DNA from: Escherichia coli O127:H6 str. E2348/69
GTDB lineage: Bacteria > Pseudomonadota > Gammaproteobacteria > Enterobacterales > Enterobacteriaceae
DNA length: 64,000 nt
Reading direction: 5' to 3' (one strand)
NCBI RefSeq assembly: GCF_000026545.1
Contig: NC_011601.1
A program made the position numbers and the translations under genes. This document shows, piece by piece, positions 26,545-36,585 of this stretch. The number at the start of each line of letters is the position of its first letter. Position 1 is the first letter of the stretch. Below the pieces are notes generated by a model. That model was given only the letters and a program-made list of their open reading frames with translations, made no database searches and was not told where the DNA came from.

Positions 26545-26590
26545 TGATGTAAGTTTCACGCGTTGCATAATTAATGAGATTCAGATCACA
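26545..26590. promoter_or_regulatory. cdd upstream control region with two CRP-like half-site pairs
   Basis: TGAGA-N6-TCACA at 26575-26590 and a weaker TGATG-N6-TCACG at 26545-26560; the cdd promoter is known to be CRP/CytR controlled. Confidence 0.45.
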
Positions 26591-26649: not shown

Positions 26650-28645
<1,996 letters not shown>

Positions 28646-28730
28646 TATTTTCCCTTTTCTGTTAATTATTGAGAATAATTATTACTTCACTCAATAAGCT
28701 GCGGATATAACATTCTGAACCGCAGCTATT

Positions 28731-28746
28731 TGTGAATCCTTTCACA
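28731..28746. promoter_or_regulatory. Perfect CRP-consensus palindrome TGTGA-N6-TCACA, 93 bp upstream of preT
   Basis: TGTGAATCCTTTCACA read from sequence. Confidence 0.5.
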
Positions 28747-28838
28747 GTTTAAATTTCCCCACGCGCATAGCCTTAATATCAGCACGCAATATTTATTTAG
28801 CGTTCGCCTTAATTACTCATAGCATTAAGGAAGATCAC

Positions 28839-30077
28839 ATGCCGCAACAAAATTATCTGGATGAACTCACTCCGGCTTTTACGCCTTTACTGGCGATTAA
28901 AGAAGCCTCTCGCTGTTTATTATGTCATGACGCTCCCTGTAGTCAGGCTTGCCCGGCACAGACCGATCCGGGGAAATTTATTCGCTCAATCTACTTTCGT
29001 AATTTTAAAGGCGCTGCCGAGACAATTCGCGAAAATAATGCCCTCGGTGCCGTTTGTGCCAGAGTGTGCCCGACGGAGAAATTATGCCAAAGCGGTTGTA
29101 CACGTGCCGGTGTTGATGCTCCCATTGATATCGGTCGCTTACAGCGTTTTGTTACTGATTTTGAACAACAAACTGGGATGGAAATTTATCAGCCCGGTAC
29201 TAAAACGCTCGGCAAAGTCGCCATTATTGGCGCAGGTCCTGCCGGATTGCAGGCCAGTGTGACGCTGACAAACCAGGGTTATGACGTCACGATCTATGAG
29301 AAAAAAGCACAACCCGGTGGCTGGTTGCGTAACGGCATTCCGCAATTCCGGTTACCGCAATCGGTGCTGGATGCAGAAATCGCCCGTATAGAAAAAATGG
29401 GCGTGACCATTAAGTGCAATAACGAAATCGGTAAAACACTCACCCTGGAGCAGCTGAAAGCGGAAAACCGCGCGGTACTGGTCACCGTAGGGTTATCGAG
29501 CGGTTCCGGGTTATCGCTGTTTGAGCATAGCGACGTTGAGATTGCCGTCGACTTCCTGCAACGTGCACGACAGGCGCAAGGCGATATCAGCATTCCACAA
29601 AGCGCATTAATTATCGGCGGCGGTGATGTCGCGATGGACGTAGCCAGCACGCTGAAAGTTCTCGGCTGTCAGGCGGTAACCTGCGTAGCGCGTGAAGAGT
29701 TAGATGAGTTTCCGGCAAGCGAAAAAGAGTTTACCAGCGCCAGAGAGCTGGGCGTTTCGATCATCGATGGATTTACACCAGTAGCCGTGGAAGGCAATAA
29801 AGTCACCTTTAAGCATGTTCGTTTACCGGGTGAACTAACGATAGCGGCGGACAAAATTATTCTCGCTGTAGGTCAACATGCCGAACTTGCTGCTTTTTCC
29901 GCACTGGAACCGCAACGTAACACCATCGAAACGCAACATTACCAGACCCGCGACCCGCAAGTCTTTGCTGCTGGCGATATTGTTGAGGGTGACAAAACCG
30001 TGGTCTATGCAGTGAAAACCGGGAAAGAAGCCGCCGGGGCGATTCATCACTATTTAGAGGGAGCTTGCTCATGTTAA
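28839..30077 (+). CDS. preT: NAD-dependent dihydropyrimidine dehydrogenase subunit PreT
   Basis: 412 aa; Fe-S Cys cluster near the N-terminus and dinucleotide-binding motif GAGPAG. Confidence 0.9.
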
Positions 30078-31306
30078 CGAAAGATCTTTCGATTACTTTT
30101 TGCGGCGTGAAGTTTCCCAACCCGTTCTGCCTTTCTTCTTCGCCGGTAGGCAACTGCTATGAGATGTGCGCCAAAGCCTACGACACAGGTTGGGGCGGCG
30201 TGGTGTTTAAAACGATCGGTTTTTTTATCGCCAACGAAGTCTCGCCGCGTTTTGATCATCTGGTGAAAGAAGATACCGGTTTTATCGGCTTCAAAAATAT
30301 GGAGCAGATTGCTGAACATCCGTTGGAAGAGAATCTGGCCGCCCTGCGTCGGCTGAAAGAAGATTACCCGGACAAAGTATTGATCGCTTCAATCATGGGC
30401 GAAAATGAGCAGCAATGGGAAGAGCTGGCGCGTCTGGTGCAAGAAGCTGGCGCGGATATGATCGAGTGTAACTTCTCCTGTCCGCAAATGACTTCTCATG
30501 CGATGGGTAGCGATGTCGGGCAAAGCCCGGAGCTGGTAGAAAAATATTGTCGGGCAGTAAAACGTGGTTCCACGCTGCCAATGCTGGCGAAGATGACGCC
30601 GAATATTGGTGATATGTGCGAAGTGGCGCTGGCGGCGAAGCGCGGCGGCGCAGATGGCATTGCGGCGATTAACACCGTTAAATCCATCACCAATATCGAT
30701 CTTAATCAGAAAATTGGTATGCCGATCGTTAACGGTAAATCGAGTATTTCCGGATATTCCGGTAAAGCGGTAAAACCGATCGCCCTACGCTTTATTCAGC
30801 AAATGCGCGCCCATCCAGAACTGCACGATTTCCCGATCAGCGGTATCGGCGGCATTGAAACCTGGGAAGATGCGGCGGAGTTTTTATTGCTCGGCGCAGC
30901 AACGTTGCAGGTGACCACCGGCATTATGCAGTACGGGTATCGGATAGTGGAAGATATGGCAAGCGGGTTGTCGCATTATCTCGCCGATCAAGGGTTTGAT
31001 TCGTTGCAGGAGATGGTGGGTCTGGCGAATCACAATATTGTCCCGGCGGAAGATTTAGACCGCAGTTATATTGTCTATCCCCATATCAATCTTGATAAAT
31101 GTGTTGGCTGTGGACGCTGTTATATTTCCTGTTACGACGGCGGTCACCAGGCGATGGAATGGAGCGAGAAAACCCGCACACCGCATTGTAATACCGAGAA
31201 ATGCGTGGGTTGTCTGCTTTGTGGTCATGTCTGCCCGGTAGGTTGTATTGATCTTGGGGAAGTGAAGTTTAAGAAAGGCGAGAAAGAACACCCGGTAACG
31301 TTGTAA
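30071..31306 (+). CDS. preA: NAD-dependent dihydropyrimidine dehydrogenase subunit PreA
   Basis: 411 aa from [10 protein letters not shown]; C-terminal ferredoxin-like Cys motifs (CVGCGRC, CVGCLLC). Confidence 0.9.
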
Positions 31307-35405: not shown

Positions 35406-35421
35406 TGTGAAATCACTCACA
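35406..35421. promoter_or_regulatory. CRP-consensus palindrome TGTGA-N6-TCACA between galS and mglB
   Basis: TGTGAAATCACTCACA read from sequence; its role in the mgl promoter is inferred. Confidence 0.45.
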
Positions 35422-36550: not shown

Positions 36551-36585
36551 CGTGAATCGAGTCACAGCAATGGAAACGGTTACAG
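36551..36585. promoter_or_regulatory. galS control region: CRP-like site plus gal-operator-like palindrome
   Basis: CGTGA-N6-TCACA at 36551-36566; TGGAAACGGTTACA at 36571-36584 resembles the GalR/GalS operator as I recall it. Confidence 0.5.

Follow-up and report, generated by a model that had tools for sequence, protein, structure and literature searches.

A catalogued cAMP-CRP activator site of preTA, most likely of class II geometry, and a separate hairpin, probably at the 3′ end of the sanA-yeiS unit, in Escherichia coli

The window analysed here is a stretch of 64,000 nucleotides from Escherichia coli O127:H6 str. E2348/69. Its local gene order is cdd, sanA, yeiS, preT and preA, followed by mglCAB on the opposite strand. 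PreTA, the bacterial dihydropyrimidine dehydrogenase, makes the cancer drug 5-fluorouracil inactive in the gut. Our subject is the interval between yeiS and preT, whose features are listed in Table 1 with the neighbouring genes. The region 28400-29000 was matched in 5424 of 5426 complete E. coli genomes, and over at least 80% of its length in 5409 of them.

Table 1. Positions of genes and of observed or predicted features around the yeiS-preT interval, in window coordinates
Feature	Position	Strand	Remarks
sanA	27684-28403		between cdd and yeiS
yeiS	28406-28645	+	79 aa, DUF2542; from the open reading frame list and RefSeq annotation of identical or near-identical E. coli records; the hairpin lies 3′ of it
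preTA Fur box, TATTGAGAATAATTATTACTTCACTC	28667-28692	+	conserved alignment block upstream of the hairpin
Stem-loop, AGCTGCGG-N15-CCGCAGCT	28697-28727	+	8-bp stem (28697-28704 / 28720-28727), 15-nt loop
cAMP-CRP site, TGTGA-ATCCTT-TCACA (TGTGAATCCTTTCACA)	28731-28746	+	centre 28738.5; catalogued activator site of preTA (yeiTA)
Candidate -10, TAGCCT	28768-28773	+	for a putative class II CRP-dependent preT promoter; predicted start ~28780-28781
Alternative downstream promoter region	28787-28800	+	-10-like CAATAT at 28787-28792, start near 28795-28800; RegulonDB start
Inverted repeat, CCTTAAT-N10-ATTAAGG	28807-28830	+	preT leader; 3′ arm overlaps the Shine-Dalgarno sequence; arms invariant in three genera
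preT (yeiT)	28839-30077	+	first gene of the operon, ATG at 28839; from the open reading frame list and RefSeq annotation
preA	~30071-31306		follows preT

An earlier note on this DNA had pointed to a hairpin followed immediately by a perfect CRP-type palindrome upstream of preT. Both can be read straight from the sequence, exactly where the note had put them, with three bases (ATT, 28728-28730) separating the hairpin stem from TGTGAATCCTTTCACA. The position upstream of preT was also right, but the distance given, 93 bp, was one too many, as 92 bases intervene between the palindrome and the ATG. The 16-bp core TGTGA-N6-TCACA has dyad symmetry and matches the canonical CRP-N consensus at 10 of 10 core positions. 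Dinucleotide-preserving shuffles predict 0.06 perfect cores for the window, which has two (a 33-fold excess); none of 100 shuffles contained two or more. The second core, at 35406, is the catalogued CRP site of mglB, and there is no other in the window. In the accessible part of Table S4 of Shimada et al., only 1 of ~70 distinct RegulonDB sites is perfect in both half-sites.

Control of the dihydropyrimidine dehydrogenase operon by CRP had been thought undescribed when the palindrome was first noticed, but yeiT was already a known RegulonDB target in Shimada et al. 2011 (PMC3105977). Table 1A of that work places yeiT among the cAMP-CRP targets of RegulonDB that were recovered too by genomic SELEX-chip, an assay that gave no specific peaks without cAMP. 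In Table S3 the yeiS-yeiTA interval has a peak whose box, TGTGAAAAGATTCACA, is the K-12 site read on the opposite strand, and Table S4, which reproduces the RegulonDB entry, gives yeiTA, activator, -57.5, TGTGAATCTTTTCACA. The 'aaa...aaa' flanks of the yeiTA row in Table S4 were considered as a sequence difference and rejected; they are padding common to other rows. The same authors caution that some RegulonDB CRP targets were merely predicted from a CRP box. Binding of cAMP-CRP to this region in vitro is thus documented by SELEX-chip, and activation of preTA by CRP in vivo is catalogued in RegulonDB. A search of the literature for preT, yeiT, yeiA or yeiTA together with CRP returned nothing beyond Shimada et al. 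2011, and the accessible text of the ChIP-exo supplements of Latif 2018 makes no mention of preT. Expression studies lend circumstantial support to CRP control in vivo. In one proteome study PreT rose along with Mal, Tdc, Glp and Tre proteins, and in a second with Mal, Tdc, Psu and Idn proteins; of these, the Mal, Tdc, Glp, Psu and Idn proteins are CRP-dependent. Transcripts of yeiT rose at a growth-phase transition in glucose minimal medium. TGTGAATCCTTTCACA is an already known, ordinary regulatory site, the CRP site of preTA.

A scan of one genome per species yielded 19 enterobacterial preT loci besides the window, namely five Escherichia, E. whittamii, eleven Citrobacter, one Pseudocitrobacter and a metagenome-assembled genome labelled Raoultella. 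A perfect TGTGA-N6-TCACA was present upstream of preT in all 19. Its half-sites were invariant, while the spacer took four forms (ATCCTT, ATCTTT, AACCTT and ATAGAT). Pseudocitrobacter retains the site though its upstream gene is not yeiS, and the site therefore belongs to preT. The earlier suggestion that the palindrome is a CRP site serving preT was borne out by binding in SELEX-chip, by the RegulonDB yeiTA entry at this exact sequence, and by half-sites invariant in three genera. Comparison of these orthologous preT promoters indicates that the half-sites are under purifying selection.

In the class II arrangement, CRP is centred at -41.5, its site takes the place of a -35 element, and the -10 hexamer occupies -12 to -7. 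Downstream of the preT site, the hexamer TAGCCT starts 22 nt after the 16-bp core (21 bp between the two) in 19 of 20 sequences from three genera, and 21 nt after it in the other; in the same 20 sequences, the ATG lies anywhere from 91 to 263 bp beyond the site. From the centre of the CRP site to the first base of TAGCCT is 29.5 bp. This fixed spacing, together with a geometry shared with the cdd, mglB and galS promoters of the same window (compared in the closing paragraphs), favours a class II promoter with CRP at about -41.5 and a start near 28780, a reading drawn from comparison of sequences that we judge about evenly balanced between right and wrong. The invariance of TAGCCTT could reflect another function, because GCCTTAA recurs in the preT leader. 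A better -10-like hexamer, TAATAT, lies 6 bp downstream of TAGCCT.

Class I CRP sites usually keep a helical phase of -61.5, -71.5 and so on. A rival to the class II geometry is that the site acts as RegulonDB annotates it, as a class I-like activator site at about -57.5 in K-12 that serves a downstream promoter. The RegulonDB start maps to K-12 position 2233989, or about 28795 in the window, ~16 bp downstream of the class II start. In the window strain, CRP would then lie at -56.5 to -61.5, and the -10 element would be CAATAT here and CATTAT or TATTAT in K-12. This geometry has points in its favour: the position -57.5 stands in RegulonDB and is reproduced in Table S4 of Shimada et al., plausible K-12 -10 hexamers (TACATT, CATTAT and TATTAT) lie just upstream of the RegulonDB start, and a start at 28800 in the window would give the canonical -61.5, with CAATAT and AATATT at offsets 41-42. 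However, -57.5 itself is off the usual class I phase, and the stretch between TAGCCTT and the leader element, in which this promoter would lie, is the least conserved of the region. K-12 and the window differ there by a 1-bp indel, and Citrobacter has 8-13 extra bases and is not alignable. Because of the indel and the extra bases, the phase between CRP and the annotated promoter would not be kept across genera, whereas the TAGCCT spacing is.

Independent start-site support for the annotated geometry was found neither in the accessible Cappable-seq supplements nor in Kim 2012. The Cappable-seq supplements gave no start site for either of the two candidate preT promoters. In Kim 2012, the only start assigned to yeiT is supported by two reads; it precedes the ATG by 228 nt and so falls within the 3′ end of yeiS. 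This weak start corresponds to about 28611 in the window (K-12 U00096.2 2231827), and a transcript from it would cross the Fur box, the hairpin and the CRP site. Since the region of the RegulonDB start carries an indel and cannot be aligned with Citrobacter, while the TAGCCT spacing is fixed, a class II start near 28780 is favoured, and the annotated geometry remains in our view a credible but less likely alternative.

Between the candidate -10 elements and preT lies a leader with repeats of its own. The inverted repeat of Table 1 is predicted in the fold of 28780-28845, but this fold is no better than that of shuffled sequences (z = 0.18), and a strong RNA structure in the leader is unsupported. 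The repeat could be an anti-Shine-Dalgarno leader hairpin or an operator. The motif GCCTTAA occurs twice in direct orientation (28770-28776 and 28806-28812) and once inverted, as ATTAAGG, over the Shine-Dalgarno sequence (28824-28830); one of the copies overlaps the candidate -10 TAGCCT. In Pseudocitrobacter a C is replaced by T, which would retain a U:G pair, and Citrobacter carries TAGCCTT twice, 12 bp apart.

In many strains, an ERIC (IRU) repeat of ~125 bp lies between the CRP/-10 region and the preT leader. Of 5426 complete E. coli genomes, 2203 have it here with both flanks; in K-12 and in the window strain the site is empty (28796/28797 in the window). E. coli E69 has a 69-bp short form, E. 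albertii a diverged copy upstream of preT, and a cryptic-clade Escherichia a longer form with an internal insert. Such an insertion would make the 5′ leader of preT longer and could cause strains to differ in PreTA expression.

We turn to the hairpin, which sits 52 nt past the yeiS stop codon. Folded alone it reaches -13.5 kcal/mol (z = -4.2), a value equalled by 1 of 200 shuffles, and 6 of the 8 pairs of its stem are GC. In eight Escherichia sequences every cell of the stem alignment is paired, with one compensatory change from C:G to U:A (in E. albertii) and one from A:U to G:U; the covariation comes down to a single compensatory event and was matched by 84 of 500 shuffles. The wobble pairs of the stem would be C:A mismatches on the opposite strand, which favours an RNA of the + strand. 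Citrobacter, too, has a hairpin at this position after yeiS, but an unrelated one (GGGA..AATGCTG-N5-CAGCATT-TCCC, -14.2 kcal/mol), whose loops vary and which contains a U:G pair in two sequences. In Pseudocitrobacter, where yeiS is not upstream, the hairpin is absent. The hairpin thus tracks the upstream yeiS and not preT, and a functional link between it and the CRP site is unsupported.

A structure conserved without its sequence, straight after a stop codon, is what leads us to regard the hairpin as probably the 3′-end stem-loop of the sanA-yeiS transcript and a feature separate from the CRP site. Its place after the yeiS stop and the hairpins kept at that place in Escherichia and Citrobacter agree with a terminator. 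It fails the definition of an intrinsic terminator, because it has no U-tract and its loop in Escherichia is 15 nt long. The E. coli tail, AUUUGUGA, falls short of at least five U in the eight positions after the stem, the Citrobacter tail, UCCCUCAG, is likewise without a U-tract, and a terminator scan did not call the hairpin. It may act as a terminator of non-canonical type, or it may be a stem-loop that protects a sanA-yeiS transcript terminated by Rho.

Searches for relatives of the hairpin gave little. In Rfam no family matched; the only hit, PrrF, had E = 0.99 and 19 bits against a gathering score of 90, a chance match. An origin from a repeat family was rejected, the 93-bp stretch of hairpin and CRP site being present only once in each E. 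coli genome where it occurs. The supplements of Adams 2021, which hold 3′-end data, have no entry for yeiS, preT or sanA. The column headed 'transcription_start_site' in the S1 Table of Latif 2018 appears to give the 3′ ends of transcription units (for example thrLABC, 5020, and sanA-yeiS, 2231861, which is the end of yeiS), and should be reused with care; its sanA-yeiS entry was left out of account here.

Alternatively, the hairpin and the CRP palindrome might together form an RNA terminator or attenuator of two hairpins, acting on sanA-yeiS read-through into preTA. Both elements do fold in the + strand RNA (z = -4.8 for the 115-nt region), the G:U and U:G stem pairs favour that strand, and in Escherichia the palindrome forms a 7-bp hairpin followed by GUUUAAAUUU. 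In Citrobacter, however, the palindrome is followed by GAAUACUCUU, without a U-tract. Its half-sites are invariant and never covary, as expected of a protein site, and Pseudocitrobacter has the CRP site without yeiS or the hairpin. We consider this attenuator improbable.

The interval contains a second regulatory element, the Fur box. The supplement of Sastry 2019 predicts its K-12 equivalent as the preTA Fur motif and assigns preT to the Fur-2 iModulon; in the text of that supplement preT appears under Fur-2, and membership in a Crp module was not seen, a point against CRP control in vivo. In Beauchene 2015, Fur gave a ChIP-seq peak at preTA, and the operon was activated in a Fur-dependent manner under anaerobiosis. 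Here the Fur 19-mer has 13 of 19 matches, at 28665, and the box is conserved across genera and more Fur-like in Citrobacter and Pseudocitrobacter (TGATAATGGTTAYYATT). In Pseudocitrobacter it is part of a long perfect palindrome, which may at the same time serve to terminate the upstream gene.

The earlier note had also raised FNR- and CytR-type factors as possible users of the palindrome, and both lost ground on inspection of the intergenic sequence. No FNR-type TTGAT-N4-ATCAA was found at up to 2 mismatches in 28646-28838, and the intergenic region has neither a second CRP-like site at up to 2 mismatches nor a CytR-type TTGCA or TGCAA motif; apart from the palindrome, the CRP-like 16-mer that comes closest in 28600-28860 differs at 3 positions and is located over the Shine-Dalgarno sequence. 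That FNR or YeiL, as other members of the CRP/FNR family, or a CytR-CRP complex uses the site, and not CRP alone, is highly improbable: one proteome study groups PreT, an Fe-S protein, with anaerobic enzymes, and control by CytR and CRP is classical for the neighbouring cdd promoter, but the core is a perfect CRP-type TGTGA/TCACA surrounded by none of the above motifs, purified cAMP-CRP alone selected the region in SELEX, and preTA transcripts are lower anaerobically, opposite to FNR activation.

Taken together, these observations make it very probable that TGTGAATCCTTTCACA is a CRP activator site of preTA, with class II its most likely mode of action, and that the hairpin is the separate 3′ end of sanA-yeiS. 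In the mechanism we propose, scarcity of glucose would raise cAMP, and a CRP dimer bound to the palindrome would recruit RNA polymerase, most likely with its centre at -41.5 or -42.5, at a promoter with the weak conserved -10 TAGCCT and a predicted start near 28780. PreTA, a pyrimidine-reducing enzyme, would thereby be produced under catabolite-derepressed conditions. CRP would act jointly with Fur, bound about 60 bp further upstream, and the hairpin, as the 3′-end stem-loop of the preceding sanA-yeiS unit, would stand outside the CRP switch.

The CRP site and the Fur box imply that sugar and iron availability would set PreTA levels, which is of practical interest and not new. In the accessible parts of the literature found on PreTA and 5-fluorouracil, transcriptional regulation is handled as a confounder and CRP is unmentioned. 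A two-part proposal, that CRP acts from a class II position at -41.5 and not from the catalogued -57.5, and that the leader of this promoter bears a polymorphic ERIC repeat in 2203 of the 5426 genomes, strikes us as plausible but a little more apt to fail than to hold. If it is true, catabolite-controlled PreTA levels, and bacterial 5-fluorouracil inactivation with them, could vary with diet and from one gut E. coli strain to another.

Three kinds of known system are available for comparison. The closest is the yeiTA site catalogued by RegulonDB in K-12, which is orthologous to ours: it lies at the same place between yeiS and preT, at K-12 positions 2233924-2233939, and has the same half-sites and the same flanks. 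The two differ in one spacer base (C in the window, T in K-12) and in a 1-bp deletion 41 bp downstream of the CRP site. Our comparative analysis differs from the RegulonDB entry in favouring the -41.5 geometry over the annotated -57.5.

The hairpin resembles intrinsic terminators and the protective 3′ stem-loops of Rho-terminated transcripts in that its GC-rich stem closely follows a stop codon. As in those 3′ stem-loops, it is the structure and not the sequence that is conserved between genera, and the wobble pairs fit an RNA of the sense strand. Unlike intrinsic terminators, the yeiS hairpin has no U-tract, and its loop in Escherichia is 15 nt.

Finally, three catalogued CRP sites within the window, those of cdd (26575-26590), mglB (35406-35421) and galS (36551-36566), provide an internal calibration of class II geometry. 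RegulonDB, as given in Table S4 of Shimada et al., places CRP at -42.5, -41.5 and -42.5, respectively. In all three, a -10-like xAxxxT hexamer (TAAACT, TATGAT and CAAAAT) likewise begins 22 nt past the 16-bp core, and these promoters, like that of preT, have a single CRP site in this arrangement and no recognisable -35. With 3 of 6 positions, the preT hexamer TAGCCT matches TATAAT less well than those of cdd, mglB and galS (4 to 5 of 6), and cdd, unlike preT, also uses CytR and a second CRP site.
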